A stretch of DNA of 64,000 nt. Source: a virus. The stretch is from the IMG/VR virus record IMGVR_UViG_3300043427_003402; one strand, given 5' to 3'. Under the pieces are notes generated by a model. That model had not been told where the DNA came from and made no database searches. It saw only the letters and a program-made list of their open reading frames with translations. A program made the position numbers and the translations under genes. Below, piece by piece: positions 2,135-63,574 of this stretch (positions within the stretch are counted from its first letter, which is position 1; each line of letters begins with the position of its first letter).

Positions 2135-5100
2135 TTAATCGTTATGCGGCAACGCCTCGAACTGGCGCACGTGTAAATTATGCCTAAGAACTAGGCCCCT
2201 AATGTTATTATCGAACACCAGTACGGCCCCGGGGTCTTTGCGCACTCCGTTGGCGAAAATAGGAGGTTGCTTGTACACAACAATTTGCTCAGGGATACCT
2301 TTTACCCCCGTGGGTAGCTTAGCTGCGGTCTGGGTCGTTTTTTGTACCGTGGTCGCGTCGGCGGCTGCCTCCTCCTCGGCGGCGGTGTTCTCGATGTCTT
2401 CTTTTAACGCGTAATCGACTAAACTGGCGTTAGCAGCGGCTAGATTGTTTTGCCCTAAGCGCTGCACGCCCCGGCGGTTGTACGCGTAGGCTTGCTGGAC
2501 GGAAAGCGTACGCGACACGTTGCGGATGGTGTCCGCAAAAATAAAATTGGATTCCACGTTCAGTAAGGGCTTCTGGTTGTTGGCAGCTTGGTTGTACCCT
2601 AGATACACGGCGTAAGTGTTAAAGTTGCGCACGTTTGCTGTCAGGCCCGTTCGCGCCTTTTGTGCCGCCTTCTGGTCCACCCGCCCAAGACCGAACCCGC
2701 CATCGTAAACAAAGATGGGCGGCAGCTTCGTTTCGAGGTCATGAAGTTGGATCGGTAAGAACGTGCTGGGTATGACGCACGGCTTATCGGCAGTTTGGGC
2801 TAAGCGCTGGAGGTACGTGTAGTACAGCTCCGGGTCGCGCGCAATCGTCAAATTCGATAACGGCTCATTATCTGGTCCCTTTAACGGCTCTAACCCTAAC
2901 TTAGACATAATCGTGCCATTGTTGATCGGGGCCAACATAACAAACTGGTTCGTCAGCGTTTTACTAAAGGGAATCATGGCTTCGCGCTGCAGCATGTTAA
3001 AGGATGCTTTCGGCACCGTCCCTTTGGCGCGGTCCGTTTGCGTTTGTTCGTTTTGCGCGATCGCTTCAAACGCTTCTATGTCCTCCGCGTCCTCCGTGAT
3101 CGTTCGCCGCACGTGCGTCAGCGTCACTGTCGTCTGCATACCGGTGGGAGTAAAGTCGTGCGCCACGGCGTGCACGTAACCGACAAGGTCGTAGCCTGTG
3201 CGGGTGGTGTCAAGAACTAGCGCGGGGTAACCAGGCGTAACGTACGGGTGAAAAGGTAACGAGACGTTTAGCGTGTGCGGCGCGACCCGTGCTGAGTAAA
3301 ATTGATAGTTCAAGAACCCCCGCAAGAAGCCAAAAGTTATCTCGTTGAATTCGGGGATGTTTAGCTCTGCGGCGTTAGCCGGTGCTTGAACAAGGTCCTG
3401 GATGGCCGCTTGGGGCGCTTCGGCGGGCGCAGCACGTTTAGTGCCTGTACCTGTCGCTTGTGTAGGCGTGGGCGTAGCCGCGGCGCCGTTCGCTGCAGCC
3501 TCGGGGTACTGAGCAGAAAACTGGCGCGCGGCAGCGCTGGGCGCCGTGGTGCGCGATTCCGAAGCCGCCCCCTGCCGGCCTTCAGTTTGCGGTATTTTCT
3601 CGGCGGTAGCGGCGACGTCAGCCGGGGCAGTCGTCAGCGGGATGAACTGCGCACCCGAGCCAGAGCCGGTCAACCCTTTATCCCACGCGTTAAACTCCTC
3701 AAACAACTTGGTGCGAAAAGTGGAAATTAAAGATTGCAAGTCCTGCATGGCGGGCAAGTTATGCTGCCCGTTTAGCGCCGCCATCGACACGTTAAAGTAC
3801 TCATTTAGGGGCTTGACGGGTAAGGTCCCGGACTGCTTCGCGGGCTTGTCGAGAGTGCCGACTGAAGTCACCTGCAGCTCCTGAACCGCCGCAATTAACC
3901 TGGCGAGCGCGGTTTTCTGACTGTCGGTAACGCGGCCGTCTCGGCCTAAGTCGATTGCAATCGTTAAATTACGCTCGTTTCCGGTGTCCTCGACGACACT
4001 AAGGCCGAACTTAGACACGACAGCGCTTTTCGCGTCAGCGAGCAACCTGAAAGCGTTACGCACGCTGGTCGCTTTCCAAGCGCCGCTACCGGCTTGGCAG
4101 AAAAACCAAGGCTTCACTGTCGACGAGTCAGGTACCTTCTCAAGTGTGACGGGCGCGCGCGAGGGTAGCGCCGCGCCAGGCGCCTGCGCGGCCCCCGGTG
4201 CGTCAATGATGACGCGGTAAACGACTGCGCCTTGGTCGTCCTCTGCGGTCCCGACGGTGAGCACTTCGGCTCTCACCTCTTGCTGTGCTGCTTTGCCAAA
4301 CGGGATTAGGGCCCGGACGCGTCCCGACCTGAAGTCGTTAAGCTGCGCTGCACGCAGCGGGCGCTCAGGTGAAAAACTCCAGCCCCCGGTAGGCTCTAAG
4401 CGCCCGTCGCGTGTCTCGAACCTGAACACGAGCGCGTAGCGTTGATCGGCGCCCGCCAGCTTGACGATCTCGACATTAACCGCGTCGGCCCGTACAGTCT
4501 GGCTCCGCCATCCGGTGTATGACTTACCGTAAACAGGCGTGCTGTTATTGAGTGTCGCGTCGAGCGTCGGACTTGAGCCGGCTAGCTTAACTCCCAGCGG
4601 CACGGCGCTGGATTCCGCAAACCTGTGGTAGCTCCTAGAAAGCAGCTGCACCACCTTACCGTCCCGTAGTACCAAATAGTTCGTGTTGATGCCCTGCACC
4701 GCGGCGCGGCTAAGTGTTTCGTTTCTTTGAAAACTGTACCTGACGGGCACTAACGTGATACGCGTAGGCACGGCAAGAAAGTTGCTAGACGCGCTAGAAA
4801 AAACTCTGATTGACCCGCGAAGTGCCGCTGCGGTCTCATACGTCTTCGCGTCTAACCCGCCGTCGCCAAGCGCCACGCAAAGAAACGCCATGTACTTAGC
4901 GCGGCGGTCTTCGGGTTGCGCGGAGAACAGCTGCTGGGACAACGCATACTTTCGCTCAGTAGGATCGGAGTGCTTAGGCAGCTCCGGTAAGCCCGGTGCC
5001 CCATCGGTTTTTGACGTGCGCAGCGTCTGGCTGAGGACGACCGTATTCAGCAGCGGCGGCACCGTGTACTGCATCGTAACAATCCCGCGCCGATCCTCTT

Positions 5101-7767: not shown

Positions 7768-10700
7768 CCAATTGGTGGAAAGGTTTTCTTGAACCAGTCT
7801 ACGACAGTTTGCGCTGCTTTGCGCTTCTTGTCAGCGACTTCCTGAGGCGGCTTGCTTGTCGGGGCTTTTGTGTCCGCCTTCGTAGTCGCGGCCTGCCTTT
7901 GCAGGTCCGCTAAAAGTTTGGACACTTTTGCGGCGCGTTGGGCAGTGTCGCCTCCTTGGGCAAGCGGTAAAGTCGCCCAATTTGTAACAAGTATCTGCAG
8001 GGTAAACGGCGTGGCAGTTTGAACTTCCGGATTATGCTGCGGAACAAAAGCAACCGCGTACCCGTAGACTTTAATGCGCAAGGCGGGAATGACGATTACC
8101 ATTTTCTGCTTGTGCTCTGCAAGCGCGGTGATCCGCAGGAATTTCTCGTATAGCAGCCTGAACTTATTGAGCTGGTCGGAAACCACGTCGTTAATCAGCA
8201 CGCCCGAGATGCTCCACATCTCAGGGCGCGGGCCGAACGCGAACGCCATGAAACTATCTGAAAGCGTGTCAACCAGCTGAAACTTCTCCGTATGGGCTTC
8301 CTGTAACCCGGTGAGCTTAAACTGGTTGTACCGGAACCCGGAATGCGAGCTGTCTAGGCCCTCCAAACCTTCTAGATGGTGGCCAGCACTACTGCCCCGT
8401 AAGACGCCCTCATTACGGCCGTCGAAGTCACAGAGGGTGATGTGGGCGTAGTTACCTGCGTTGAATTGCGCGGCGTTCAACGCAGCGAGCGGTACAGCAG
8501 CGCTTATCATACGGAAGTCCAGAATGTCGCCGCCAAATAGGTTTGTGACGGGAAGCATCGGGGAGCTGTCTTTTGAGGGCGCAGGGGCAGGCGCGCTTTG
8601 AGCGGGGGTACCAGCCTTGGGCACCGGAGGCGGCGGAGGCACGGTGCCAGGTACATACGGCCGCACGGTAGGCGCTTCGGTTACATTTGCGCTCACCAAT
8701 TCGACTGTCTCATTTGTCGCGTTCTCGACCGCAGTCTGGTCGAGTTCGGGGGCGGGCCGCGGGGCAGGGAACGCAATACCGCGCGCGGCGCCCTCGGCGG
8801 CTTTCGCGTCCTCTGCTGGCTGGTCGGCTGCTTTACGAGCCTGAACCGCAGCCATTGCGTTCTCCAGTAACCGGCGGCTTTGCGGGTCGGTAGTCTGCGC
8901 GTAATGATTTTGCAAGTCGGCCAACGTGATAGCCCGCGAGCGTTGCCGCGCGCGTATCCGTGTGTAGCTCCGCTTCAGCACCGCGACCGAAGTCTCGGGC
9001 GCGATGGCGACGAAGTCCTGCACAGCCTTTCGCCGGGCGCGTGCATCGTCGGACTTGAGCCCAGTTAACAACTGCGCCGGGTACACGGGCAGTGCGCTAG
9101 CGAAGTCCACGCCGTTTCCGGTGACAAAAAATGTGCGCTTATCCGCGCCGAAATCTGCCGGTATAGCGGGCTGCATGGCGTTAAACAAACCCGTGATAGC
9201 CGTGTCTGCTTGCGTTGCGACGGCCGTGCGACCCAGTGCAATCAGCGCTTCTTTAGCTGAAGTTTTCATCTTCTCCGCCAAGAATAAGAGTGCCGAAATT
9301 CGATGCTTGGCACCGGGCGAGAGTACTGGCACCGTGTTACTAAGCTGGGCGCTGTACCCTAATACTTGCAAGCTGGCGTCGACGTACAGGTTTTTGATCT
9401 TCGTGACGCTTTTACCTTGCTCTTGCTGAGCCACTTGGCCGGTGCCGTTTAAGAACGTCTTGCTGTACGACGCCGTAGCGACAATCCCCATGATGTCTTG
9501 GAACCACGGCTGCTGTGCAACATTCGCGGTTGCGACACTCGTTTGCGTCATAGTGGCGTACGCGCGCGGTGTCGTCTCTAGGCTCTCGCCGACAAAGCCA
9601 CCGCGTATTGTAACAGGCAGCTCAGGGATAACATCCGCCACCTGCGCGGCGACGGTATGAATCGTTGATACGATGTCCCCTTGAGAGACAGTGGGCGAGT
9701 AAAGGCGTGCGATGACTTGGTCTCCTGCTGTGCGCAAGGCGGCTGGCAGCTTGGCAGTAAAAGCGGCCAACTGCGCCGTCACGTTCGCCAGCGCGTCGGT
9801 ACGGGTCTGGAACCTTACGCGTTCGATGGCGGTAGACCGTTGTTCCGGGAAATCGTAAGTGGCAGTGGGGCTGACTGTGTATACATTGTTTACAACCGTT
9901 ACCTGCGCCGTGCGGAGTTCGACGCTAGCTTGAGTGGGCGAAAAACCTAATACTTCAAACACGTAGTCCGCGCTCGTGGGCGCAACTCCGAGGGTGAGTT
10001 TGGCAAACATGTCCAGCGTGATCGCAGAACTAGACAAGCCCTCCAAGCGGATAAAGTCAGTCCGGGCAGCTGGCCGCATGCAAGCCGCATTGGCGGCCAG
10101 CGAAAACGACGAGAGCTGCACAGGATTTAAACCGGTGACGGCCTCTAGATCAATCGCGCTCACGGCGCTCTCGTTCTGAACCGTCGGTTTTAACGCCATA
10201 GGCGCCGCGGCGTTCAGCACTAGGACTTTGCGGTCGGCAGACACGCTCTGTACCGAGAAGTAACGCGGGGTAACTGCGGTCTGTATGGCGACCCTAGCTC
10301 CTAGGCCAGCCGCATCAGCCGCGCTAGGCGGCAGCGCGTCGATCAAGATGCGGTCTGCCGCTTGTACACCAGTAGCGAACTCCCCGCTGCCTGCGTGCAG
10401 CACGAGCCTGTCATACTCGTTAAGCTGTACCTGGACCACCGAAAAGTTCGCAGTGCGCGAGCCCGGTGCGGTAAGCACTGGCGGAAGAGCCGATGCTGTA
10501 TACGGTGCAAACATTGAACCCGCGCCCTCTAACGCGCGTCCGTCTAGCCGCGTGCTTGCCAGCAGTAAAAAATTGGGTACCGGTTGCGCAGTGACCCGGT
10601 GCGCGGCGTAGTAGGGCGACGGGGCCGTAACGCTCAGTTTGGCGTACGTCGTGGGCGTAAAAGCCGTGCCTGCCGGTAAGTTTGCGCCCGGACCGTGCAG

Positions 10701-16933: not shown

Positions 16934-17701
16934 TTATTCGTAGAACTCTAGTTCAAAAACACGGAATCGGTCAATCGTTGGTGCCCCTTGGATGCCATAG
17001 TAAGTACCGGGAATAGGCGTTGCATTAGCTGGACGCACGGCAAAATAGGTTGCAGCTGCATATGCGTCAACCTCCCATTCGAGCCAGTTGAATGCAGTAT
17101 TTTCAGGATTGGCATACAATCCGACCGTGACAGTATCGACGACTGTCCAGTTGACGCCATCGCTTGACTTGATAAACTCCAAGTTAAGCGGAACTGTAGC
17201 AAACAGCCCACGCACCTTCCTGACCTGCTTCTGGCTAGCGTACTGTTGACCGACATAGCTTTGCGTAATGTCTCCGAAGGTAGTGAATGACTGCCAGTAA
17301 CTACCTTCGGCAGAATCAAACGCATTTTCAACGCCTTGGCCATTGTAGCCGATAGTTCCAATGGCCGTCTGGGAAGTAATCAGCGTGTAAGACGGCGGTG
17401 CAGATACAGCGGCAAACTCAACTGCCAACTCTTTCGTGCCAGAATCCAAATCCGCTTGGACTGCAAAATCGGCGGCACTTAATACTTGAACAACAATTGA
17501 TCTCAATAAATTACCAGAAGCATCCTTAACCTGAACAATCGCCGTACCAACTGCTAATGCTTCAACAACACCAGCAGAAGTAACTGAGATTGTGTCTTGT
17601 TGATCAACAGGTACTGAGTAAGTGACTGAGGTATCAACCGCGCCGCCATCAAATGCGGCATTAATATCTAATTCTGAACCAAGTTCTAGTTTTAGTTTCA
17701 T
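16934..17701 (-). CDS. Ig-like (Big_2-type) anchor + discoidin/F5-8C-like domain protein
   Basis: Shared N-terminal DINAAFDGGAVDTSVTY...GVV.A..VGTA module; NAFD...YWQS, SSDGVNWT. Confidence 0.7.
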   Translation of the reverse strand: MKLKLELGSELDINAAFDGGAVDTSVTYSVPVDQQDTISVTSAGVVEALAVGTAIVQVKDASGNLLRSIVVQVLSAADFAVQADLDSGTKELAVEFAAVSAPPSYTLITSQTAIGTIGYNGQGVENAFDSAEGSYWQSFTTFGDITQSYVGQQYASQKQVRKVRGLFATVPLNLEFIKSSDGVNWTVVDTVTVGLYANPENTAFNWLEWEVDAYAAATYFAVRPANATPIPGTYYGIQGAPTIDRFRVFELEFYE

Positions 17702-17758
17702 TATTTTCTCCTACAAAATGCGCCCCAGCCGAAACTAAGGCGCATTGATTAATGCTAT

Positions 17759-18535
17759 TTATTCAAACATTTCGATTTCATAGACGCGGAATCGGTCAAT
17801 GACGCCGCCATTTGCAGCCCAATAAGTACCAGGGAGTGCGTTATAGGTATTCGGACGCAGAACTAGCTGAGTGCTAGGCGTGTATGGAGGGAGAATAATC
17901 TCCTGCCATACCCATTGACCCGCTGGGGCGTTCTCAGTATAGACCGGCGTAAAGTCGTAAATACTAGGCTGCTCCCAACCTTCAGTACGCACGCTAACGC
18001 TATCCGGTGCTGTCACCCACTGAATGCGCAACTTTTTGACCATCTTTGGTGAGTCAAAATTCAAGCCAACAAATGCAAGCGTAGTTGACCCAAATGTGGC
18101 TTGAGACACGTACAGTGTTGGCGTTGCGCTATTGCCGTCGAAACCATCAAACGCTTTATCTGGCCCCTCTAAATACATGCCAGATGTGCCATGGGGGGTT
18201 CCGTTACTAATAAGAGTATAAGCTGGCGCAGCCACCACTTCAGCAGTCTCCACGCTCAAGTCTGTTACACCAGCATCCAAATCTGACTGAACCGCAAAAT
18301 CGGCGGCGCTCAAAACCTGAAACACGACTGCTCGAAGCAAATCACCCGAGGCAGCATCTTTGATTTCAACCGTGCCTGTACCCACGGCAACCGCTGTGAC
18401 AACGCCATTGGCGTCAACGGTAATAATGTCCTGCTGATCGGCAGGCACCGAATACGTTACTGACGTATCAACTGCTCCGCCGTCAAATGCAGCGTTGATG
18501 TCTGCCTGTGATCCAACTTGAAGTTTCTTTTTCAT
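17759..18535 (-). CDS. Ig-like anchor + discoidin-like domain protein
   Basis: Same N-terminal module; KAFDG motif; C-terminal IDRFRV.E.E shared with its neighbour. Confidence 0.7.
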   Translation of the reverse strand: MKKKLQVGSQADINAAFDGGAVDTSVTYSVPADQQDIITVDANGVVTAVAVGTGTVEIKDAASGDLLRAVVFQVLSAADFAVQSDLDAGVTDLSVETAEVVAAPAYTLISNGTPHGTSGMYLEGPDKAFDGFDGNSATPTLYVSQATFGSTTLAFVGLNFDSPKMVKKLRIQWVTAPDSVSVRTEGWEQPSIYDFTPVYTENAPAGQWVWQEIILPPYTPSTQLVLRPNTYNALPGTYWAANGGVIDRFRVYEIEMFE

Positions 18536-18546
18536 AATTCAATCCT

Positions 18547-20853
18547 TTACTCAAACGAACCGTAGCCGTAAGCCTGCAAAGACATCTCGCCAAGCGTAGT
18601 AGTGACTCCTGCATACGCACCCAGGGCTGTCACGTAAATTCGGTAGTACGCATAATTAGCCGGTTGAGCCAGTATATAAGTACGCAAGTGGGCGCGGCCG
18701 CCAACAATTCGGGATTCGCCCGTTCTGGTATCAAGCGCGGTCCAATTTATGCCGTCACTTGACCCCTGAAATTGCCAGTCTGTCCAGTGCGTGCTGCCAT
18801 CAGTGGTGCCGTAAAGCGTATAAGCCTCAATCGTAGTTGTAGACTCAAACTGATAACCAAGCCACTGAGGCGATCCCGCGCCCGAGCGCCAGGCTGTTGC
18901 GTCGTTAAAAGTCCCATCAAAAGCAACGTAGGCGTCGTGAGTAGCGCTGGAGATAGAGCTGGCTGAAGCAACCCCGCTTGAGACTGAAGCAAACTGCGCG
19001 TAAGGCCCTTTTTGCGTGTTAGAAACCATATACGGATTGACTCTCACCAAAGTGGGAGGCGTTACAAAAGCAAGGACCTCAGAGGCTGTTTCACCTGTTG
19101 TATTGTCTGAAACGTAAACGACGTAATTCCCGCTTGTGTAATTGCTGGGCAGCGTAAGCGTGTTGGTGAACGGTCCCGTACTGGCAACCGTCACGTTGTT
19201 AATTACATCCAAGACGGTGTTTGAATATTGTGGCCGGATTCCAATTTGATAGGTGCGGCCCGCAATCACTGCGCCAATTCCCCAATTAACGTCAATTGAA
19301 TATGAGCGAAATTGCTGGCTAACGCTTGAAACTTGCGGAAAACTGTCCGGCTGGGGCACGCTAATTGACCGCGTTGTCTGGCTTTCAAACCCATCTGCAT
19401 TGGCGGATTTAAAAGTCACAACATAAGTCTTGCCGTCTTTGGCGTGCGGCAAAACGAGCGTGCTATCAACGTCGCTCATTACGTCTTGGTTATTCAACAA
19501 AATTGTGCTGCCGTCGCTGGTTCTAATATCCAGTGTTTTACTCGCCACCGCAGTCTCAAGGTCACTTGCAGACCACGAAATTGTAAACTGATTGGCTTGC
19601 CACTCAGCAGACAAAGAAATGGTGGGCGCTGTGATGTCGTGCTTGACGTAAGAAACTGACGCGTAGCCCAATTTTTCAGAATTGAGGTCGTATGCAAAAA
19701 TCTCATAAACACCGGTTGGTACCGATTCTGGCACAATTAACGTATAACTAAGCGGCCCAACCGTGGTCTGCGCCTCTGGCAGCGTAAAGCCTGGTGAGTA
19801 GCCCAACACGGTGGCAAGCGTGTAAGACGGTGCGCCATTTGGGTGGCGTATGCCGACTTGATAAGAATCGTATTTGGCCCAAACTGAGTTTGTCCATGAA
19901 ATCGTAATTGTGTTATTGCCGTTATCCACACCCGAAACCAGTGTAGGTTGATTGGGTATAGGTGGCACAACCGCCGTGGCGGTAACCGTTTTGCTGAGAC
20001 CGTCGCCATTGATGACAGTCAGCGTAGCGGTGTAGGTCGTGTCGTTTGGCTCAATGTAAGCCGTCATGGTACTGTCGGCGTCAGCCGTGACGCTCTGGTT
20101 GTTAATCAGCACGCTGGCGCCGTCCTGAGAGCGCAGGTCCAGGGTCTTGCTGGTAATTCCGGTCTCAGGATCGCTGGCAGACCAACTTACCGTAATCAAA
20201 TTTGTGTACGGGGACCAGTTGGCGGAAACAACGGCAATCGGGTCGCTAAAGTCTTCCGTGTTGATCGTGACCAAAGCTGAGCCAATCGTCATATTTACAA
20301 GGTCTTGAACGTAAACCTCGTAAGCCCCGTCTGCAACGGCAGACAGCAGCTGAACCGTGTGCGGCCCAATACCTGAAAAAGTGCTGTTTTGGTGCTCAAA
20401 TCGTCCGGACCCGGAAGTTGAGCTCGCGGCCGAGCCGACGGCACGAATACCAACCTGAAACGCCCTAGCCGTAACTGCCATCGTGTTAGAAAAGGTAACG
20501 CTGACGTAGTTATTGCCCGCGTCCGCGCCTGACACGTCAACCGGTGAGTTGATGTCAATAATCTCAACCTGCAGTTCAGTTTCACCCGCGCCTAAGTCTT
20601 CCTGCGCCGCAAAGTCTTCAGCGCTCAAGACTTGGATTACAATGGCCCGCAACAGGTCGCCGGTCACAGCGTCGTTAATTTCAACTGTGGCAGTACCGAT
20701 CGCCAAGGCGGTTACAACACCGGCGGTATCGACCTCAATAACATCCTGCTGATTCCCCGGCGGCACCAAGTAAGTGACTGACGTATCAGCCGCGCCGCCG
20801 TCAAAGGCGGCGTTGATGTCTAGCTGAGACCCAACTTCAATTTTCTTTTTCAT
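18547..20853 (-). CDS. Ig-like anchor + FN3-like repeats + F5/8C domain protein
   Basis: N-terminal module; duplicated SWSASD.ET...SKTLD.R..DG repeats; AFDG...WQFQGSSDGINWT...YRIY. Confidence 0.7.
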   Translation of the reverse strand: MKKKIEVGSQLDINAAFDGGAADTSVTYLVPPGNQQDVIEVDTAGVVTALAIGTATVEINDAVTGDLLRAIVIQVLSAEDFAAQEDLGAGETELQVEIIDINSPVDVSGADAGNNYVSVTFSNTMAVTARAFQVGIRAVGSAASSTSGSGRFEHQNSTFSGIGPHTVQLLSAVADGAYEVYVQDLVNMTIGSALVTINTEDFSDPIAVVSANWSPYTNLITVSWSASDPETGITSKTLDLRSQDGASVLINNQSVTADADSTMTAYIEPNDTTYTATLTVINGDGLSKTVTATAVVPPIPNQPTLVSGVDNGNNTITISWTNSVWAKYDSYQVGIRHPNGAPSYTLATVLGYSPGFTLPEAQTTVGPLSYTLIVPESVPTGVYEIFAYDLNSEKLGYASVSYVKHDITAPTISLSAEWQANQFTISWSASDLETAVASKTLDIRTSDGSTILLNNQDVMSDVDSTLVLPHAKDGKTYVVTFKSANADGFESQTTRSISVPQPDSFPQVSSVSQQFRSYSIDVNWGIGAVIAGRTYQIGIRPQYSNTVLDVINNVTVASTGPFTNTLTLPSNYTSGNYVVYVSDNTTGETASEVLAFVTPPTLVRVNPYMVSNTQKGPYAQFASVSSGVASASSISSATHDAYVAFDGTFNDATAWRSGAGSPQWLGYQFESTTTIEAYTLYGTTDGSTHWTDWQFQGSSDGINWTALDTRTGESRIVGGRAHLRTYILAQPANYAYYRIYVTALGAYAGVTTTLGEMSLQAYGYGSFE

Positions 20854-20898
20854 TGTTAACCTCTAAGCTTTTGGTAGCTACAAGACCTAGGCTAAAAT

Positions 20899-21858
20899 CT
20901 AAGCGCCGTAGATTTTGATGTTGTGCACCGTAATGTAGCCTTTATCCATGAGTTCAGTACCGCCTACGGTAAGCGGATAAAAATTGATATTAACTCTAAT
21001 TTTTCTAAATTCCTCGTTTTGTAGCTCAAAGTTTAAGCTAGGAGTCATACTCTGCAGACTCGTGGTTGCACCGAAGTCAACGTCTAACGGAGAACCTAGC
21101 TGCACCCAGCTCCCACCGTAGTCCGGGCCGTCTGCGGTCTGTATCATTCCGGCATACATACCCTCTACTACAACCCGGACTAAACCGTGTCCAGTAGCCT
21201 CTACCACAAGTGCTGTTATGTTTTTAGCTACAGGAAGCGCGATGCCAACCATAAAACTATCTACAATAATTTCAGATTGCGCACCGTAACCGTCGCCGTA
21301 GTAGCCGCCGTGACTCAACGCATAAATACCGCCGCTTTGGGTGTTTGCGTCAAACGCCTCGTACGCCTCACCCGTGCTTGTTTCAACATTCCAGTAACGG
21401 TTGCCGTACAAGTAAGCGTCACTAGCGTTCATAGAGGTCATAAGCCACGCGCTGTAGCCATTTGAGTTATTGCTTGTCATGTTGGGCAAAATTAACTCGC
21501 CTGCCCCTACGCCGCCGCCACTGTTATCGTTACCGCTGCTAAGCGTAACAAAGGAAGCAAGAAACTCGGTGCCGGGGCCGCCTGCAAGTCCAGAGTCAAG
21601 TGAAACTTGAATCTCGTGAGCAGCCTCTGCGAGCACCTGGATGACGACTGCGCGAAGCAGTCTGCCCGTGATGGCGTCTTTAACTTCAATCGTAGCAGTG
21701 CCCTCTTCCAGCGCAGTAATCACGCCAGAAGGGCTAACACTGACCACGTCCTGCTGCTGGGGTGAAGGCACCACGTAGAGCACGGAGGCGTCTATCCCGC
21801 CGCCCTCAAAGTCTGCGTTAAGGTCTATCTGGTCGCCGACCGCCAATTTTTTCTTCAT
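20899..21858 (-). CDS. Ig-like anchor + discoidin-like domain protein
   Basis: N-terminal module; PNMTSN...AYEAFD motif. Confidence 0.65.
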   Translation of the reverse strand: MKKKLAVGDQIDLNADFEGGGIDASVLYVVPSPQQQDVVSVSPSGVITALEEGTATIEVKDAITGRLLRAVVIQVLAEAAHEIQVSLDSGLAGGPGTEFLASFVTLSSGNDNSGGGVGAGELILPNMTSNNSNGYSAWLMTSMNASDAYLYGNRYWNVETSTGEAYEAFDANTQSGGIYALSHGGYYGDGYGAQSEIIVDSFMVGIALPVAKNITALVVEATGHGLVRVVVEGMYAGMIQTADGPDYGGSWVQLGSPLDVDFGATTSLQSMTPSLNFELQNEEFRKIRVNINFYPLTVGGTELMDKGYITVHNIKIYGA

Positions 21859-21994
21859 GGTACAGCCTTTCTTTGTGCTAACTTCAACAGTAATTATCTT
21901 CGCTTACAGTATAGCACTTGCAGGTAGGCATATCGGCGCGTGTGCGAACGCTTTTACGAAGGTTAATTTGACAAGCTATAAGCCGGCACCTGCC

Positions 21995-22029
21995 AAAAAA
22001 CAACGACCCCAGCCGAAGCTGGGGTCGTC
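21995..22029 (-). terminator. Rho-independent terminator
   Basis: ACGACCCCAGC/GCTGGGGTCGT stem with a T-run on the minus strand. Confidence 0.75.
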
Positions 22030-22062
22030 AGTCAGACTACCATTAGGAACTTTAGCTTACCC

Positions 22063-22395
22063 TTAGAATACCTGAGGTGGCTCCTCTTCTTCTTCCTCCT
22101 CAAGCCCGTCAATCGTAATGTCGAGCAAGCCTCGGGCTTCCATTTCAACTGCTTCCAGTTCTTCGTCTGTCAAAACTTTAACAATAACCGTTGCAATGGG
22201 AGCGTCGTTGGCAGTCTCGGTTACATACACCACCGCAGTGCCATGATCAAGTGCCGTTACTACGCCTGCGGCATCAACTGAAATAATGGCTTGTTGTGCT
22301 TCAGATACCGAATACGTAAGCCCGGCGTCTTCCTCATTTTCACCAAGTTGAAAGTTTAAGTCGAGCGTGTCGCCCACACTAAGTTTATACTGCAT
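22063..22395 (-). CDS. stand-alone Ig-like anchor module with acidic tail
   Basis: Contains only the shared N-terminal module plus a poly-Glu tail. Confidence 0.65.
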   Translation of the reverse strand: MQYKLSVGDTLDLNFQLGENEEDAGLTYSVSEAQQAIISVDAAGVVTALDHGTAVVYVTETANDAPIATVIVKVLTDEELEAVEMEARGLLDITIDGLEEEEEEEPPQVF

Positions 22396-37259: not shown

Positions 37260-39287
37260 CTACAGGACGTTCCACTCCGAACCGTTGTACACAAACATCC
37301 GCGCGCCGTAGTCGCCGTCAATAACCTGCGAAGAGGCGCCGTCAATCGTGCCACTGTCAGCGCTGACCGTGATGTTGTTGGTCGAGGCGTCGCCCTTACC
37401 ATCCTTGACCACAACTTGCTTACCAACCGCAGGCGAAGCAGGCAACGTGACAGCGGTGGCTTCGCCGGTACCCTTATTGACGATGACGACGTCATCGCTG
37501 GCGCCGCACGTCACCGAACCCGACGCCGTGACGACGTTCACTGCACGCAGCGCGCTTCCGAAGTCGACGCTGAACGCGCCCGCCGAAACCGCCAACCCTG
37601 CGCCCGCCGAAGCGACGCCCAGTTCGGACGCGGTTGCCGCCGGCAGGTCAGCCGCCACCAGTGCACGGAATTCAGGTGCGCCGGCAGACCCGTCAGGCGC
37701 AGCGAACACCAGGTTCGCAGATTGCGAAGCGAGCTCCGCAGTCAGCGTTCCGGAATCCGTCACCGGGTTTCCGGTCACATTGAACATTGCCGGCATCGAC
37801 AAGTCGACCGAAGTCACCGAACCGTTACCGGCGCCAAACTGGACGGAAGTGCCGTTAATTTGCGCAAAGAAACCGGCGGCGGTCGTCCAGACGTCGCCAT
37901 CAACTGGGGCCGACGGCGCGGAGCCGTGGGGGACGTTCAACCCGGCGCCGGCAGAGCCGGACGGGATAACCGTCAGCTTACTCGCCTCACCTGTAAAGGT
38001 CGCGGCGGCGTCCTTCAGCACCACGTTGCTGGAGAGCGCCGAATCGCTCACCTTGCCGGGGGTGCTGATGGTGGCCAACTTCGTGTCGGAGATTTCAGCG
38101 CCCGCCGCAATGTCCGCGTCGACGAGCGAACCGGCGATGCTCAGTTTGGAGTAATCAATCGTAGCCGCAGCGATGTCCGCGCCGACGATCGAGCCGGCCA
38201 GGCTCAATTTGGTGTAGTCGATCGTACCCGCTGCAATATCGGAACCAACGATCGAACCTGCCAAGTTCAGTTTGGCGTAGTCGATCGCACCCGTGGCAAT
38301 ATCGCTGCCCATGATCGAGCCCGTCAGATTCAGCTTAGCGTAGCCGATCATGGCCGACGCGGCAATGTCGCTGTCCACGATTGCGCCCGCCATGTTCAAC
38401 TTCGTGTAGGAAATCCCCGCCGTAGCAGCGATGTCGCTGTCCGAGATTGAATCCCACAAGTTCAACTTGCTATACGCAATCCCCGCGCCCGCCGCAACGT
38501 CGGCATCCACCAACGAGCCGGCCAGATCCAACTTGCTGTACGCAATCGCAGCGTCGGCCGCGATGTGGCCGTTCCCCAACGAGCCTTCGCCCACCTGGAT
38601 GCTGTCCGCATTAACGGTAATCGTACTGTCGGCAGCCACCACTTCCAGCATGTTGCCCGTCTTGCTCAGGCCTCCGCCTGCTACAATCTGCGCTGCGCCC
38701 GAAAACTGAACAAACGTCAACGCCGTCGTGCCAAGCGTAATGGCGCCGGACGTCGTCAGGACCCACGAAGTCGCGGCGTACGTGCTGCCTTCCGTCACAA
38801 GGACGTACATGCCGGAAGTAACATCGGCCGACACCTGCGCGTCTTCCGAACGCGGCCACGCTCCCGAGTCCACCACGTAAATACCATTTTGCGAAGCGTC
38901 GGCCTGCCCCGTAACCAAAATACGATCGCCAGTCACAAGTGCGATACCGTCAACCGTCTGCTCACCGCTCAAGGTGATGTCGCTGACCGACACTGCGCGG
39001 ACGGAGTCCTTAAAATCGCGCAAGCCCTGTGCAAGCGTGTCCACGTACTGCTTGGTCGCTGCGTGCAGCGCGTCAGTAGGGTCGGCGGACAAAGTCAGCA
39101 TACCAGTCAGCGCGTCGCCGGCTTTGTCGATGGGCGTGAAGCCGAGCGCGGCAGTCACGTTGCCGCTCACCAAGCTGATCGTGCCAGCCAAGTTAGTGAT
39201 GTTTTCGCCGATCAAGACGGCGCCCAGGTCCGACGCAGTTGCGACGGGCAAACGGGCGGGACTGAGTTTTATACCTTCATAAGACAT
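37260..39287 (-). CDS. tail fibre protein with 21-22 aa repeats
   Basis: HAATKQYVD, DSVRAVS...GDRILVTGQ...NGIYVV, I.Y.KL.L.GSI...DIA repeats, C-terminal VVVKD domain. Confidence 0.75.
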   Translation of the reverse strand: MSYEGIKLSPARLPVATASDLGAVLIGENITNLAGTISLVSGNVTAALGFTPIDKAGDALTGMLTLSADPTDALHAATKQYVDTLAQGLRDFKDSVRAVSVSDITLSGEQTVDGIALVTGDRILVTGQADASQNGIYVVDSGAWPRSEDAQVSADVTSGMYVLVTEGSTYAATSWVLTTSGAITLGTTALTFVQFSGAAQIVAGGGLSKTGNMLEVVAADSTITVNADSIQVGEGSLGNGHIAADAAIAYSKLDLAGSLVDADVAAGAGIAYSKLNLWDSISDSDIAATAGISYTKLNMAGAIVDSDIAASAMIGYAKLNLTGSIMGSDIATGAIDYAKLNLAGSIVGSDIAAGTIDYTKLSLAGSIVGADIAAATIDYSKLSIAGSLVDADIAAGAEISDTKLATISTPGKVSDSALSSNVVLKDAAATFTGEASKLTVIPSGSAGAGLNVPHGSAPSAPVDGDVWTTAAGFFAQINGTSVQFGAGNGSVTSVDLSMPAMFNVTGNPVTDSGTLTAELASQSANLVFAAPDGSAGAPEFRALVAADLPAATASELGVASAGAGLAVSAGAFSVDFGSALRAVNVVTASGSVTCGASDDVVIVNKGTGEATAVTLPASPAVGKQVVVKDGKGDASTNNITVSADSGTIDGASSQVIDGDYGARMFVYNGSEWNVL
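38075..38555 (-). repeat. about seven tandem 21-22 codon repeats within the fibre gene (approximate bounds)
   Basis: IAYSKLDLAGSLVDADVAAGAG, IDYAKLNLAGSIVGSDIAAG etc. Confidence 0.75.
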
Positions 39288-48937: not shown

Positions 48938-49564
48938 TTAATGGCCCATAGCGCCACGTGGCGCCTCCGGGGCTGCGAGTCCCGTCGTTTTACCGATTAC
49001 ACTGTCAATAAAACCTAACTCCAACGCAGTTTGGGGCGTCATAAAATAGTCGCGATCGCACAAGTCGTACATCTTCGCGTACTCCATACCGCAGTTGTCC
49101 GCCATCGTCTCAGTCAGCAACTTCTTCAAGCGCTGAATTTCAGCACTTTGAATAAGAATGTCTGTCGCTTGTCCCTTTGCGCCACCCAATGGTTGGTGTG
49201 CCATAATGGTTGCGTTAGGCGTTGAGTGACGCTTGCCCTTCGCACCCGCAGCCAAAAGGAAACAGCCCATGGAGCAGGCCTGCCCTACGCAGATGGTCGA
49301 GACGTCTGCGCGCACCAAGTTCATCGTATCGAAGATGCCCAGCCCGGCGGTAACCGAACCGCCAGGTGAGTTGATGTACATCATGATGTCCTTATGCGGA
49401 TCCTTATAATCCAAAAACAACAACTGCCCAATCACGATGCTCGCCATCGCGTCGTCGATAGGGCTCGTGATCATGACAATCCGCTCGTCCATGAGCCGGC
49501 TCCACAAGTCCATAGACCGGTCGCCGTTTGCCATGCGTTCTAAGACCATCGGTACCAGCGGCAT
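48938..49564 (-). CDS. clpP: ATP-dependent Clp protease proteolytic subunit
   Basis: SRLMDERIV, YINSPGGSVTAG, ACSMG (Ser), AHQP (His), DRDYFM (Asp). Confidence 0.95.
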   Translation of the reverse strand: MPLVPMVLERMANGDRSMDLWSRLMDERIVMITSPIDDAMASIVIGQLLFLDYKDPHKDIMMYINSPGGSVTAGLGIFDTMNLVRADVSTICVGQACSMGCFLLAAGAKGKRHSTPNATIMAHQPLGGAKGQATDILIQSAEIQRLKKLLTETMADNCGMEYAKMYDLCDRDYFMTPQTALELGFIDSVIGKTTGLAAPEAPRGAMGH

Positions 49565-58726: not shown

Positions 58727-58900
58727 ATGAACTGGACGTTTCACAAAGGGCGCAAAGAGTGGTACTGCGAACACGGCGTTGGGCACTATGACCCCCAACT
58801 CTCGAACATCGACGTGCACGGATGTGATGGGTGCTGCGGCCGTGACGACTTCCCTGGCAAGCCTAATACAAATGAAGGCTTAGAGACTCAAAATGAATAA
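58727..58900 (+). CDS. 57-aa Cys/His-rich protein
   Basis: MNWTFHKGRKEWYCEHGVGH...HGCDGCCGRDDFPGK; GGAGG RBS; below the track cutoff. Confidence 0.65.
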   Translation: MNWTFHKGRKEWYCEHGVGHYDPQLSNIDVHGCDGCCGRDDFPGKPNTNEGLETQNE

Positions 58901-59027
58901 GCTTTTACCCGTAGGCAACAGCAACGGCAGAAATGGTTACGGCTACGGCTACAGCAGCGGCTACGGAAGCGGCTACGGAAGCGGCTACGGCACTCCGTGG
59001 CTGCGGGCAGAAATGCGGAGATTATGA
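58893..59027 (+). CDS. LPV-leader Gly/Tyr-rich peptide 1 (44 aa)
   Basis: MNKLLPVGNSNGRNGYGYGYSSGYGSGYGSGYGTPWLRAEMRRL; overlaps both neighbours. Confidence 0.6.
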   Translation: MNKLLPVGNSNGRNGYGYGYSSGYGSGYGSGYGTPWLRAEMRRL

Positions 59028-59536
59028 TGGACCCTAATGAAGAAATTTGTGTCATCAAATGGACGCTGCAGGACCTTGTTTGCGCGTTTCAAGGTGAAAA
59101 CATTGAACCCACAGAAGAAGCCCTTAACGCTGTAATTGACCACATAAACGGTGATTTAGCAGACCTCTGTATTGAACGCGGCTGGGAAGTCATTGAAGAC
59201 GCCATTGCCAGAAAACCCTGGCTAGCTACGACCCGCGCCTGGTGCAGCGGCTGCGACGGCTGCTGTGCCCGTGATGACTTCTCTGGCAAGTTGCAAGAAA
59301 CAACTCTGACGTCAAAAAACAAAGATTGTCTTGATCAAATGTTGTTTGCCGAGATTGACTGGCAACTGCTTAGAAAACAAAAGTTACAGCTGATAAATTT
59401 TATTGAAGCCAACAGCAACAACCAAAACATTGAATTTTTAAATGGAATACTGGCTTTGGTAGACCACTTCCAGGATTGTGCCGTTGACAGCAGTTGTGCG
59501 AGTGAGGACGTGGTTTTTGGGCACTTGTTTGACTAA
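59024..59536 (+). CDS. hypothetical mosaic protein
   Basis: ATGA overlap start; contains GCDGCCARDDFSGK also seen in 58727-58900. Confidence 0.6.
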   Translation: MMDPNEEICVIKWTLQDLVCAFQGENIEPTEEALNAVIDHINGDLADLCIERGWEVIEDAIARKPWLATTRAWCSGCDGCCARDDFSGKLQETTLTSKNKDCLDQMLFAEIDWQLLRKQKLQLINFIEANSNNQNIEFLNGILALVDHFQDCAVDSSCASEDVVFGHLFD

Positions 59537-59759
59537 CTTCTTGCCTGTCGGCAACAGCAACGGCAGAAATGGTTACGGCTACGGCTACAACCACGACAGT
59601 TGGGGCCACGGCTGGGGTGACGGTGGCGACAACGATTACGGCAACAGAGACGCCGACAGCGACGGCGTCTGTGAATTTTATTACGGCCACGCTTACGACA
59701 ATGGCGCCGGTAGCGGGAGCGGCTACGCCACGCCGACAAGCGCGGTCCGGAGGAAATGA
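59529..59759 (+). CDS. LPV-leader Gly/Tyr-rich peptide 2 (76 aa)
   Basis: TTG start gives MTNFLPVGNSNGRNGYGYGY...GYATPTSAVRRK. Confidence 0.6.
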   Translation: MTNFLPVGNSNGRNGYGYGYNHDSWGHGWGDGGDNDYGNRDADSDGVCEFYYGHAYDNGAGSGSGYATPTSAVRRK

Positions 59760-60013
59760 TGGACAAGTTTTTGCCAGTAAAACAACCCGGCGCTCTCTAC
59801 TACGACTACGGCGACGGTTCAAATAATGGAACAGGCTACGGATTTTGTGTCTTAACTTACGGCTTCTACAATGGCAACGGACGCGGAACCGGGTACGGAA
59901 CTGAAAGCGGTCACGGTGAGGGCAACGGCAATTACTTTTGCCCAATCACAATGTACGGGGCGCATTTTGGACTTGGTGGTTGTACGGTATCGACCGGCAC
60001 TCGGAGGCGCTAA
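59756..60013 (+). CDS. LPV-leader Gly/Tyr-rich peptide 3 (85 aa)
   Basis: MMDKFLPVKQPG...GCTVSTGTRRR; GGAGG RBS. Confidence 0.65.
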   Translation: MMDKFLPVKQPGALYYDYGDGSNNGTGYGFCVLTYGFYNGNGRGTGYGTESGHGEGNGNYFCPITMYGAHFGLGGCTVSTGTRRR

Positions 60014-60270
60014 TGCGTAGATTCTTGCCGGTAGGCTATAGCGCAATAAGCAACTTCTGGGGCGACTTCGGGGGTGACTTCGGGGGCGGCGAAGGCGACG
60101 GTGGCGATGGCGGCTACAGCGAAGACGACGGTAGTGGTTACGGGCAAGGGTACGCTGATTACGGGGACGCCTGGGGTGATAGTGGCGGCAGCGAGTATGT
60201 GGATAGCTTTCATAGCTGTAATGGGGCTGGAGTAGGTACTGTGTCGTCAACGAAGCGCAAACGGTTGTGA
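60013..60270 (+). CDS. LPV-leader Gly/Asp-rich peptide 4 (85 aa)
   Basis: TAATG coupling, GGAGG RBS; MRRFLPVGY...GVGTVSSTKRKRL. Confidence 0.65.
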   Translation: MRRFLPVGYSAISNFWGDFGGDFGGGEGDGGDGGYSEDDGSGYGQGYADYGDAWGDSGGSEYVDSFHSCNGAGVGTVSSTKRKRL

Positions 60271-60275
60271 AAAGC

Positions 60276-60318
60276 CACTCCAACCGTTTGAGTAGCACTC
60301 CAACTGTTTGAGCAGCAC
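60276..60318. repeat. two 20-bp tandem repeats, each an imperfect palindrome
   Basis: CACTCCAACCGTTTGAGTAG CACTCCAACTGTTTGAGCAG CAC. Confidence 0.8.
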
Positions 60319-60810: not shown

Positions 60811-62331
60811 ATGCTGCAGATCACTTTCTACCCCGTCACCTCAGTTGTCACAGGTATTCCGTTCAATAGCGAGCTGGAAACATTTTTCACTACCCAGCTC
60901 AGCTACGTGATACCGGACGCAGAAAACCACCCGCACGTGAAGCGCGGCGAGTGGGACGGGCGCGTATCAGTAATGCAGCGGTACTACCCGCACACAAACA
61001 CGCACACCTTACCGACCGGGATCGTGCAGCGCTTTCTGCGGTGCGCAGATATGTACAAACTGCCGTGTACGTTCATGACCGGAATCCAACCCTTGCTGCC
61101 AGACCCAAGCCTGGCGTACCTGCAAGCAAATCAAACATGGCAGCTACGTGACTACCAGCAAAAAGCGCTGGAAAAAGCTGTGACGGGTTACGAACTTGAA
61201 CCGTACGGTATCAAGCACCCTCGCACGGGCGGCGTACAGCACATCTGTACGGGTGGCGGTAAGAGCGCGCTCGCTGCAAAAATTATTCAACATCTGCAAA
61301 ATAAGGCTGTGGTCCTCGTGCAGAGCGGCGACCTGCTAGAACAAATGCTAGACGACCTCAAGGCAGTCTTGGGCGAAGAAGGCGTCGGCTTCATCGGTGA
61401 CGGAACCGCAGACGTAAAAGACGTCAACGTCTGCATGGTACAAAGCCTGCACCGCTACTACAAAATGAAAACTGCGCCGCAAGCACCGGGGGCTGCGCCA
61501 GATAAAAAGAACACGCATAAGTGGGAAACTGAGATTCAACAACTGCTACAACAGACAAGAGTCGTAATCTTTGATGAGGTGCATGGGGTGGCCGCGCGGC
61601 AGCCGTTTGAAGTGCTCTCCATGTTCGGTAACGCTGCGCACGTGACGGGGCTGTCGGCCTCCCCGTGGCGCGATGACGGTACGGGCATTCTTATAGAGTG
61701 CGCATGCGGCCCAGTAGTCGAACACGTCTCTGCCACCGAGCTGATTAACGCCGGATGGTTGGTGCCGCCTACTATTTATGTGCACGAACTGCCCGTACCC
61801 GAAGGCGCCGCCAAATACGGTGACTACGACACCGCCTACAAAACTTTCATATTAGACTGCGAACCCCGGCACAACTACATCGCGCGGTTAGCGAATTCGC
61901 ACCTTGCGAAGGGTGACGTCACGCTGGTGCTGGTGAAGTTCATTGAGCACGGTGAAGCTCTGCAGCAACGCATACCTGGCAGCGTCTTCGTAGAAGGCAA
62001 GCTAGCCAAAACGAAACGAAAAAAGCTCTGGCAAAAAGTGCGCGACGGTGAGCTCAAATGTATCATCGCCACCTCGCTCGCGGATCAAGGCCTCAACATC
62101 CCGGTGCTGGACACGCTAATCCTAGCCGGAGCGGGCAAGTCATCTACGCGCGCGTTACAACGGGTGGGGCGAGTACTGCGTAAGCCTGAAGGTTCTAATA
62201 AAACTCAGGCAACGGTGCACGAAATAGCCGACGCACATAGTATACTGAAAGCACACACAAAACGTCGTATTGGTATTTACACTACGGAACCTGCGTTTAA
62301 GTTTGAAGTTGTTACGGTGAAAGAGTTTTAA
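60811..62331 (+). CDS. superfamily II DEAD/DEAH helicase (UvsW/XPB-like)
   Basis: LRDYQ, TGGGKS, DEVH, LSASP, QGLNIP, QRVGRVLR. Confidence 0.9.
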   Translation: MLQITFYPVTSVVTGIPFNSELETFFTTQLSYVIPDAENHPHVKRGEWDGRVSVMQRYYPHTNTHTLPTGIVQRFLRCADMYKLPCTFMTGIQPLLPDPSLAYLQANQTWQLRDYQQKALEKAVTGYELEPYGIKHPRTGGVQHICTGGGKSALAAKIIQHLQNKAVVLVQSGDLLEQMLDDLKAVLGEEGVGFIGDGTADVKDVNVCMVQSLHRYYKMKTAPQAPGAAPDKKNTHKWETEIQQLLQQTRVVIFDEVHGVAARQPFEVLSMFGNAAHVTGLSASPWRDDGTGILIECACGPVVEHVSATELINAGWLVPPTIYVHELPVPEGAAKYGDYDTAYKTFILDCEPRHNYIARLANSHLAKGDVTLVLVKFIEHGEALQQRIPGSVFVEGKLAKTKRKKLWQKVRDGELKCIIATSLADQGLNIPVLDTLILAGAGKSSTRALQRVGRVLRKPEGSNKTQATVHEIADAHSILKAHTKRRIGIYTTEPAFKFEVVTVKEF

Positions 62332-62332
62332 C

Positions 62333-63574
62333 ATGAACGAATCAAAGTCCGCTGTACAAAGCGGCTTTAGCTTGTCTCCTGAACAGGACGCAGCTAGGGC
62401 CGCTATTCTGCGCTGGTGGAAATCCGCGTCGTCCGCAACTGCTGCGACCAGAGCCGCACGTGGATCACAGATATTCTGTGTGGCGGGTTACGCGGGCACG
62501 GGGAAAAGTACGATTGTGAAAGCGGTGGTCGCGGAGCTGGGCCTCCCGGATGCCGCGGTGGCGTACGTCACGTTCACTGGGAAGGCTGCGCTGGTGCTGA
62601 ACCGAAAAGGTACGCCTGCAGTTACAATACACCGGTTGATCTATATCCCGGTGATCACAAAGTATATCGACAAAGACGGCCGGCCCAAAGAAAAGGTGTC
62701 CGGCTTCAAGCTGCGCAAACCGGACGACGAGTCGCTCGGGACTATTTCCCTCATTGTAGTAGACGAAGTGTCGATGGTCGGCGGGTCGTTACTCAGTGAT
62801 CTCCTCAGCTTTGGTATCCCGGTACTCGCGCTCGGTGACCCCGGGCAACTGCCGCCAGTCTTGGACAACGGGAACCGGCTGTCAGAAAAAGCAGACGTTT
62901 TTCTGACAAAGGTTCACAGGCAAGCAGCAGACAACCCGATCCTCTGGGCCTCGATGCGTATACGCGAAGGCCACAGTCTGCCGTACGGTGTATATGGTGG
63001 CACACACCCTGGCGACGCGCCGTTAAGCGTGGTGCCGCAATCCTACATCACTCATGAAATGCTGGCCGCTGCAGACCAAGTTATATGTGGGCGGAACGAG
63101 ACGCGGCAGTTTCTGAACCAAGGTATGCGTACGTTTCTCGGGCGCTCAGGGCTACCGGAGGTTGGTGACAAACTAATTTGCCTCAAGAACAACTGGACCG
63201 AAGCGTCGTCGACGTTAGCCCCTTTGATCAACGGGTGGCTGGGTCGCGTGTCTAAGCTTGGACGCGTAGACCGCCGACGCCGTACATGTATATTGAACGT
63301 CGAGGACTGGGACGATTCCGCAAACGAGTTCTTCGCGCTCGAAACAAACTTGGATTTCTTTGAGCAGGCCAAGGGCTCAACTGAAAAGCCCAACACGCAC
63401 AGTAAGGTGGAACACTTCGACTACGGTTACGCAATCACGTGCCACAAAAGCCAGGGCTCGGAGTTCGACTCCGTGGTCTACGTCCACGAGCCGTTCGGCG
63501 GCGCGGACATCGCGCGCAAGTTACTGTACACTGGTATTACTCGTGCGTCGCGCTCGCTGGTGATCGTAATCTAA
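62333..63574 (+). CDS. RecD/Dda-like superfamily I helicase
   Basis: GYAGTGKST, VVDEVSMV, GDPGQLPPV, YAITCHKSQGSEF, LYTGITRA. Confidence 0.92.
   Translation: MNESKSAVQSGFSLSPEQDAARAAILRWWKSASSATAATRAARGSQIFCVAGYAGTGKSTIVKAVVAELGLPDAAVAYVTFTGKAALVLNRKGTPAVTIHRLIYIPVITKYIDKDGRPKEKVSGFKLRKPDDESLGTISLIVVDEVSMVGGSLLSDLLSFGIPVLALGDPGQLPPVLDNGNRLSEKADVFLTKVHRQAADNPILWASMRIREGHSLPYGVYGGTHPGDAPLSVVPQSYITHEMLAAADQVICGRNETRQFLNQGMRTFLGRSGLPEVGDKLICLKNNWTEASSTLAPLINGWLGRVSKLGRVDRRRRTCILNVEDWDDSANEFFALETNLDFFEQAKGSTEKPNTHSKVEHFDYGYAITCHKSQGSEFDSVVYVHEPFGGADIARKLLYTGITRASRSLVIVI

Follow-up and report, generated by a model that had tools for sequence, protein, structure and literature searches.

Gene organization of the peptide cluster

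The viral DNA stretch IMGVR_UViG_3300043427_003402 from IMG/VR, analyzed here over its whole length of 64,000 nt (hereafter the window; GC content 56%), contains a cluster of four small genes, c1 to c4, encoding Gly- and Tyr-rich peptides. All four peptides start with M-x-x-(F/L)-L-P-V, continue with a core rich in Gly, Tyr, Asp and Asn, and end in a basic tail (Table 1). The original prediction described them as four coupled open reading frames (ORFs) of 44–85 amino acids (aa) with LPV starts and tails consisting of T(P/V) plus basic residues, and rereading the sequence gave exactly this picture. The residue following LPV is Gly in c1, c2 and c4, and Lys in c3. The tails of c2, c3 and c4 directly match the motif T-(V/I/P)-(S/T)-x-x followed by two to four Arg/Lys residues, while the c1 tail is a variant of it. 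In total, the string [FL]LPV occurs only seven times among ~94,500 residues of the six-frame translation of the window, and four of the seven are the starts of c1–c4, lying within 1.4 kb; the shared start thus goes beyond chance.

The genes form a chain with the 57-aa ORF and the 170-aa ORF of the same strand. There is an 8-nt overlap between the stop of the 57-aa ORF and the c1 start; an ATGA contains both the c1 stop and the start of the 170-aa ORF, and the TTG start of c2 lies 5 nt ahead of the stop of the 170-aa ORF. The c2/c3 junction is again ATGA and the c3/c4 junction is TAATG. Shine-Dalgarno sequences of the GGAGG type precede c3, c4 and the 170-aa ORF. The TTG start of c2 was also chosen by an independent gene caller on L171, a second assembly of the window phage (JGI sample 3300047510) that is 99.98% identical to the window over 6094 nt; the sole mismatch, at position 59282, lies outside the peptide genes.

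The Gly content of the four copies is 22–27%, and 41–70% of the core Gly residues are followed by another Gly at position +2, so that the repeat is degenerate. The net charges are +4 (c1), −4 (c2), +1 (c3) and −7 (c4). The c3 peptide is predicted to be disordered (AlphaFold2 mean pLDDT 33.6, from a shallow alignment). A Pfam match of c1 to KRTAP (E 0.0025, under the cut-off) was rejected as compositional.

Scans of the cluster region for promoters, terminators and Rfam families gave nothing over background. Directly after the c4 stop, at 60276–60318, there are two and a bit tandem copies of the 20-nt unit CACTCCAACCGTTTGAGYAG; the 208-nt gap between c4 and the next gene that holds this unit has no Rfam or terminator match.

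Table 1. Position of the peptide genes and associated features in the window
Feature	Position	Strand	Remarks
57-aa Cys/His-rich ORF	58727..58900	+	directly 5' of c1; stop overlaps c1 start
c1, 44-aa Gly-Tyr peptide	58893..59027	+	ATG start; tail T-P-W-L-R-A-E-M-R-R-L; family HMM (hidden Markov model) E 4e-12
40-nt stretch in c1	58914..58953	+	identical to 59550–59589
170-aa ORF	59024..59536	+	between c1 and c2; Cys motif; stop overlaps c2 start
c2, 76-aa peptide	59529..59759	+	TTG start; tail A-T-P-T-S-A-V-R-R-K; family HMM E 8e-26
40-nt stretch, second copy, inside c2	59550..59589	+	identical to 58914–58953
c3, 85-aa peptide	59756..60013	+	ATG start; tail C-T-V-S-T-G-T-R-R-R
c4, 85-aa acidic peptide	60013..60270	+	ATG start; net charge −7; tail G-T-V-S-S-T-K-R-K-R-L
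Two helicase genes (phrog_16 type and Dda-like)	60811..63574	+	just downstream of the cluster; Pfam/PHROG scans
ClpP gene	48938..49564	−	9.3 kb from the peptide cluster

Orthologs of the peptides and the origin of their divergent cores

A profile search with the four copies retrieved only three protein clusters, and two more were found among 1.84 billion representatives. Peptide alignments used as queries gave no confirmed relatives in IMG/VR, GTDB genomes or JGI metagenomes; the peptides are of low complexity. Orthologs were found in L001–L009, contigs of a different phage with 38–44% GC, with L007 and L010 as further ortholog contigs. The c3 orthologs are P0001 (87% identical), P0003 and P0005, and c4 has an ortholog, P0002, in L007. 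Those of c2 (80–81 aa, 68–71% identical) are located at 5095–5340 in L004 and 2342–2584 in L008. The tail of c1 is matched by an 86-aa gene in L008, and its variant motif recurs there and in L001.

The orthologs of c2, c3 and c4 thus belong to phages of 38–49% GC, as against 56% in the window. Their amino-acid identity to the window copies is 65–87%, and in codon alignments the synonymous sites are near saturation. The ratio of nonsynonymous to synonymous substitution rates (dN/dS) is 0.07–0.22 overall (0.10 for c2, 0.07–0.22 for c3 and 0.19 for c4), which indicates that purifying selection acts on each peptide copy. The core of each paralog is conserved in its own orthologs, including unique segments. 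Hence the cores, described as hypervariable in the original prediction, do deserve this name when paralogs are compared with one another, but not within a set of orthologs.

These comparisons also bear on the question of whether the ORFs are genes at all. The region also contains long open frames in antisense and in alternative frames, and the gene caller took an alternative frame over c4 in L171, so the stated ORFs might have arisen merely from a GC-rich hexanucleotide repeat, or the real gene might be on the other strand. We regard this as extremely improbable: selection acts on the stated frame, over 130 genes at 35–60% GC preserve the end motifs in frame, and the low-GC orthologs have interruptions in the antisense ORFs. 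The sequence comparisons support c1–c4 as real, related and translationally coupled protein-coding genes with conserved ends and divergent cores.

According to the original prediction, the alternation of GGC with NNC-type codons was a sign of adenine-specific mutagenesis, and the four genes a peptide library diversified by a diversity-generating retroelement (DGR). As in DGR variable regions, AAC, GAC and TAC codons are abundant beside GGC, and the differences between copies are concentrated in the core. However, the share of NNC among two-fold codons is 0.69 in the peptides and 0.68 in the background of 17 long window genes, and it is 0.48 in the low-GC orthologs. The pattern thus equals the background codon bias, and a GGC-NNC codon pattern taken alone is not a DGR signature. 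The substitutions relative to the orthologs, mostly C/T and A/G changes, are not A-specific, nor are the differences between copies. A template-like second copy of any core was not found in the 64-kb window; the sole repeat of the peptides there is the N-terminal 60-mer of c1 and c2, whose differences are of mixed types.

The absence of a reverse transcriptase (RT) or maturase noted originally was borne out in the ORFs scanned: no RT domain was detected by Pfam in 20 selected ORFs at 48.4–63.6 kb (PHROG covered much the same set; the ORFs at 1–48 kb were not scanned). A regular expression for Y-x-D-D, applied to window ORFs of at least 200 aa, matched only a repeat in a 970-aa ORF, which is not RT-like (this ORF was not scanned with Pfam or PHROG). 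No RT was found in the 5 kb beyond the window on L171, and in this second assembly the peptide cores are identical to those of the window. Together, the orthologs, the dN/dS values, the substitution spectrum, the codon background and the lack of a template lead us to conclude that the cores are transmitted by inheritance and kept under selection, and that mutagenic retrohoming does not regenerate them; the pattern that an RT should leave, even one encoded elsewhere in the genome, is absent. What looks like a genuine DGR does occur in a phage with a ClpP of the same clade as that of the window (see below), but its target is a lectin-fold protein, not Gly-Tyr peptides. The probability that c1–c4 form a DGR-diversified library is, in our opinion, practically negligible.

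It should be mentioned that this other DGR looks standard in its organization: RVT_1, bAvd and a 506-aa Lcl_C (lectin-fold) gene lie side by side at 9647–14467 in L176 and 9312–12552 in L177. The ClpP of the L176/L177 phage is 79% identical to that of the window.

Another process has left traces in the copies. The repeat shared by c1 and c2 comprises 60 nt at 88% identity, and its final 40 nt are identical (Table 1), as originally reported. L001 contains a 55-aa gene composed of a c2-type start and a c1-type tail, while L008 keeps two separate genes. Because of the 40-nt identity and this hybrid gene, the peptide copies appear to recombine, and the identical stretch itself is best read as the mark of an exchange between c1 and c2 by recombination or gene conversion.

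The wider peptide family and its predicted Sm-like partner gene

Directly upstream of the peptides in L001–L010 there is a gene for a protein of 100–103 aa, which we used as a query for more loci. A pattern scan with this partner gene confirmed 342 relatives in IMG/VR, and 80 metagenome and 80 IMG/VR loci were fetched in this way (~160 loci). In 113 of 166 loci the partner gene is followed directly by Gly/Tyr/Asp-rich ORFs of the same orientation. Among the 146 partner genes with enough downstream sequence, a peptide starts between −60 and +400 nt of the partner stop in 108, and in 74 of these the peptide start overlaps the stop. Modules of this kind in L004 and L008 contain the orthologs of c1, c2 and c3, and the partner gene is present upstream in all of L001–L010.

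A composition and motif scan with assigned starts yielded 149 family peptides (133 distinct; median length 84 aa), with up to seven tandem copies per locus. The N-terminus has the form aromatic-x-P-V/I-G, the Pro being present in 130 and the Val/Ile in 126 of the 133. In the core Gly occupies alternate positions (Gly 38%, Tyr 17%, Asp 9%, Asn 7%, Ser 6%). The C-terminus follows T-(I/V/P)-(T/S)-x-R-x-R-R-(R/K), the end positions being rich in Arg and Lys. Both ends of the window peptides can be aligned with the family, and their composition is related to it. Thus the conservation of leader and tail in homologs, which the original prediction had named as the test of the family, was observed across many phages. 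An HMM built from ten members recovered the window copies together with the canonical ones, and further members were found only downstream of the 103-aa gene.

Genes recurring near the pair encode a phrog_16 helicase, an Erf-like annealing protein, RecE/Cas4-type exonucleases, a DNA polymerase, single-stranded DNA-binding protein (SSB), thymidylate synthase and a DNA methyltransferase. We are highly confident of the following two statements taken together: c1–c4 are diverged paralogs in a large phage family of small, predicted-disordered Gly-X proteins, and the diversity of the copies arose by duplication and by slippage or unequal recombination at hexanucleotide repeats, followed by purifying selection, rather than by targeted mutagenesis.

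Small size, conserved ends, a variable core and several tandem copies are also what one would expect of precursors of ribosomally synthesized and post-translationally modified peptides (RiPPs), in which a constant leader and follower surround an enzyme-modified core, and this was another proposal of the original prediction. McbA, a microcin precursor, is a Gly-rich peptide of this kind. The resemblance to McbA-type precursors is limited to small Gly-rich peptides with constant ends. The "leader" here has only 7–8 residues, short of the usual length; there is no double-Gly site, and no maturase or exporter genes were found in the related loci (Pfam/PHROG). Pfam and PHROG scans of the neighbors of the window cluster detected no gene of the maturase or RiPP recognition element type. 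Likewise, no maturase recurs in the ~160 loci, where the conserved neighbor, a small barrel protein, is no enzyme and is accompanied by replication genes. A RiPP origin is therefore very improbable.

The peptides and the partner subfamily matched no Pfam or PHROG model. DUF6948 (PF22253) was weakly touched by 2 of 88 partner members (E 0.07, not significant). The AlphaFold2 model of the partner (pLDDT 89.2) retrieved mostly Sm/LSm proteins among the top 50 Foldseek matches (TM 0.4–0.66, E 0.03–0.1), and VIA-align gave a Z score of 7.4 to Lsm1-7 and ~35 Sm/LSm rows at Z of at least 5. The ~100-aa partner is thus predicted to have an Sm/LSm-like fold, a five-stranded bent beta-barrel; the prediction concerns the fold and not the function. 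A complex prediction for the L004 Sm-like protein and its 75-aa peptide returned a score of 0.00, which amounts to no verdict and was used neither way. No match to the L004 Sm-like protein was found by tblastn against cultured phages. Literature searches revealed no paper describing the Gly-X peptide family, and a full-text search for DUF6948 also revealed none; the pair of an Sm-like barrel and a Gly-X repeat protein is therefore undescribed in the literature searched.

Possible function of the peptides and their neighbors

As the best overall explanation, held with moderate confidence, we propose that c1–c4 are coding paralogs of the Gly-X family acting as a disordered, multivalent partner of a nucleic-acid-handling protein. 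How they would do so can be outlined only tentatively, by analogy. The ends of the peptide would be docking elements, a docking signal being the one idea of the original prediction that we retain: through its hydrophobic motif the N-terminus may contact a protein (the Sm-like barrel in phages that have it, another or a host partner in the window phage), and the Arg-rich tail may attach to nucleic acid or to an acidic surface. The core, rich in Tyr and Asp, would provide flexible, multivalent "sticker" contacts by which an early-infection complex handling nucleic acids is tuned or clustered. A bolder version, in which the Tyr/Gly/Asp sticker peptides with an Arg tail of many phages, the jumbo phage of the window included, form, together with an Sm-like ring or a host RNA- or single-stranded DNA-binding protein, a condensate or gel organizing early replication and recombination, seems to us rather unlikely.

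Two groups of known proteins suggest this analogy. In the Sm-fold proteins SmD1, SmD3 and SmB (with Arg-Gly repeats), LSm4 and Hfq, a low-complexity tail is part of the same polypeptide as the barrel, in Hfq as the C-terminal domain, and such tails modulate nucleic-acid binding or assembly. As in the phage module, an Sm-type barrel is associated with a disordered Gly-dipeptide segment with charged ends; in contrast, the phage barrel and tail are separate genes, the repeat is Gly-Tyr/Asp/Asn and not Gly-Arg, and the window lacks the barrel gene. The second group comprises Tyr/Gly low-complexity sticker domains, such as the [G/S]Y[G/S] domain of FUS and the YG domain of PEX13. They share with the phage peptides a high content of Gly and Tyr, Arg-rich ends and predicted disorder, while the phage peptides are very short (44–85 aa), acidic and without homology to them. 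Phase separation is known to organize a phage program in the case of SPO1 Gp27 (PMC13401047).

Several observations weigh against the proposed explanation. The mechanism is drawn by analogy with Sm/Hfq tails and Tyr/Gly sticker domains, and the Sm-like assignment is that of a predicted model with middling Z scores (<8). The window cores are only about half in the alternating Gly register and more conserved than a pure spacer would need. A search with the Sm-like profile (--max, E up to 10) found nothing in the 64-kb window, and hhalign of this profile with the neighboring 206-aa, 170-aa and 108-aa proteins gave probabilities of 1.4% or less. The usual Sm-like partner is thus missing here or located outside the 64-kb window.

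When the window is set beside the canonical barrel/Gly-X module (DUF6948-like), the end motifs, the tandem amplification and the replication-module context are the same, and the Gly/Tyr/Asp/Asn composition is related. It differs in having no detectable Sm-like gene and, instead, Cys-motif proteins upstream; the core Gly residues are about half in the alternating register, and there are unique segments conserved in orthologs. Judged by its sequence, the window therefore represents an atypical case of the family, with complex conserved cores, four paralogs and no detectable Sm-like gene.

The Cys-motif proteins are encoded by the 57-aa and 170-aa ORFs, which have in common the motif G-C-D-G-C-C-x-R-D-D-F-x-G-K (12 of 14 positions identical). 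The 170-aa ORF stands at the usual place of the Sm-like gene in related modules. Homology between them was not detectable (hhalign probability 0.4%), and a faint E-R-G-W / W-x-S-G-x-D-G resemblance of the 170-aa protein to the Sm-like profile was dismissed as not significant. The 57-aa ORF has no match in Pfam or PHROG. Relatives of both proteins were found only in L171 and L172 (two database relatives for the 170-aa protein); an Atlas search with the 170-aa protein gave no usable match, and tblastn against cultured phages gave none. In L172, at 1509–1802, an N-terminus of the 57-aa type is combined in one gene, via the Cys motif, with the C-terminal portion of the 170-aa protein, the N-terminal portion of which is a separate gene. 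The Cys motif looks like a recombination joint between modules.

Since the window has no detectable Sm-like gene and yet maintains four copies under purifying selection, the peptides might instead act alone as acidic decoys, that is, as early nucleic-acid mimics or sponges for host factors (Hfq, an SSB-binding protein or a defense sensor). The net acidic charge of c2 and c4 (−4 and −7) and the location in the early/replication block fit such a role. On the other hand, c1 and c3 are not acidic (+4 and +1), the tight start/stop coupling to the Sm-like gene throughout the family argues for a joint function, and no similarity to anti-defense families was found in Pfam or PHROGs (PADLOC was not searched). 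We consider decoy activity unlikely.

A link to ClpP was considered for a different reason. A comparison of the phage in the window with the low-GC, unrelated one of L001–L009 detected no shared genes other than those of the peptides and of ClpP (66% identity), and in L001–L009 ClpP lies 0.25–0.9 kb downstream of the peptide cluster. The ClpPs of both belong to a clade known only from metagenomes (207–208 aa, 65–87% identity), cellular ClpPs being at most 61% identical. The peptides might accordingly be substrates, decoys or regulators of the phage ClpP, with the N-terminus or the basic tail as a degron or docking element. We find this improbable, as ClpP was found in none of the other ~160 family loci, five loci with ClpPs of the clade (L173–L177) have no Gly-Tyr peptide or Sm-like gene within 10 kb, and in the window 9.3 kb separate the peptides from ClpP, which is on the opposite strand. 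The first two of these findings led us to reject ClpP as a general partner. We read the shared genes as peptides and ClpP exchanged between co-occurring phages; L005, L008 and L171 all come from sample 3300047510.

Two further features of the ClpP-containing contigs were noticed. In L175, at 8972–10627, a 73-aa ClpP fragment (82% identical to the N-terminus of the window ClpP) is followed by a DUF723 gene on the opposite strand and then by a full-length ClpP; the arrangement resembles the insertion of a mobile element, ClpP having been duplicated or replaced. A conserved ORF of 34–35 aa, very acidic and rich in Tyr, Glu and Asp (e.g., L004 5782–5889), is located between the peptides and ClpP in L001–L009; no counterpart to it was found in the window.

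As for its genomic setting, the peptide cluster lies within a plus-strand block, with a DNA methyltransferase upstream and the two helicases downstream (Pfam/PHROG). By these annotations the helicases place the cluster in a replication module, as in the related loci. Megablast of window positions 56–64 kb found no match in cultured phages, and the helicase used as a query found nothing in IMG/VR and only distant cultured phages. Elsewhere in the window, four neighboring minus-strand genes at 17554–22317 share 92 nt of conserved sequence at their 5' ends and an internal segment of 70 nt (61–84% identity), which suggests a paralogous set. A 675-aa minus-strand ORF (37260–39287) contains six copies of a 63-nt repeat at 38102–38551, corresponding to a 21-residue period. 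In L002 (6142–9456), the DNA polymerase III alpha gene has intein/homing-endonuclease domain matches and an adjoining HNH gene; the L001 version gave no such domain matches.

The Gly-X family is very common in uncultured phages. The window variant comprises four paralogs, their cores evolving slowly and not being repetitive; the genes were exchanged between phages that differ widely in GC content. On the condensate reading, which we judged rather unlikely, this would be a derived form in which four specialized, sequence-conserved peptides work without a phage-encoded ring. Apparently uncoupled from the barrel gene, the window peptides are well suited to dissecting which of their parts are responsible for the function. 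More generally, the pairing of a barrel with a disordered Gly-Tyr peptide in replication modules could point to an unrecognized step of nucleic-acid handling in phages.

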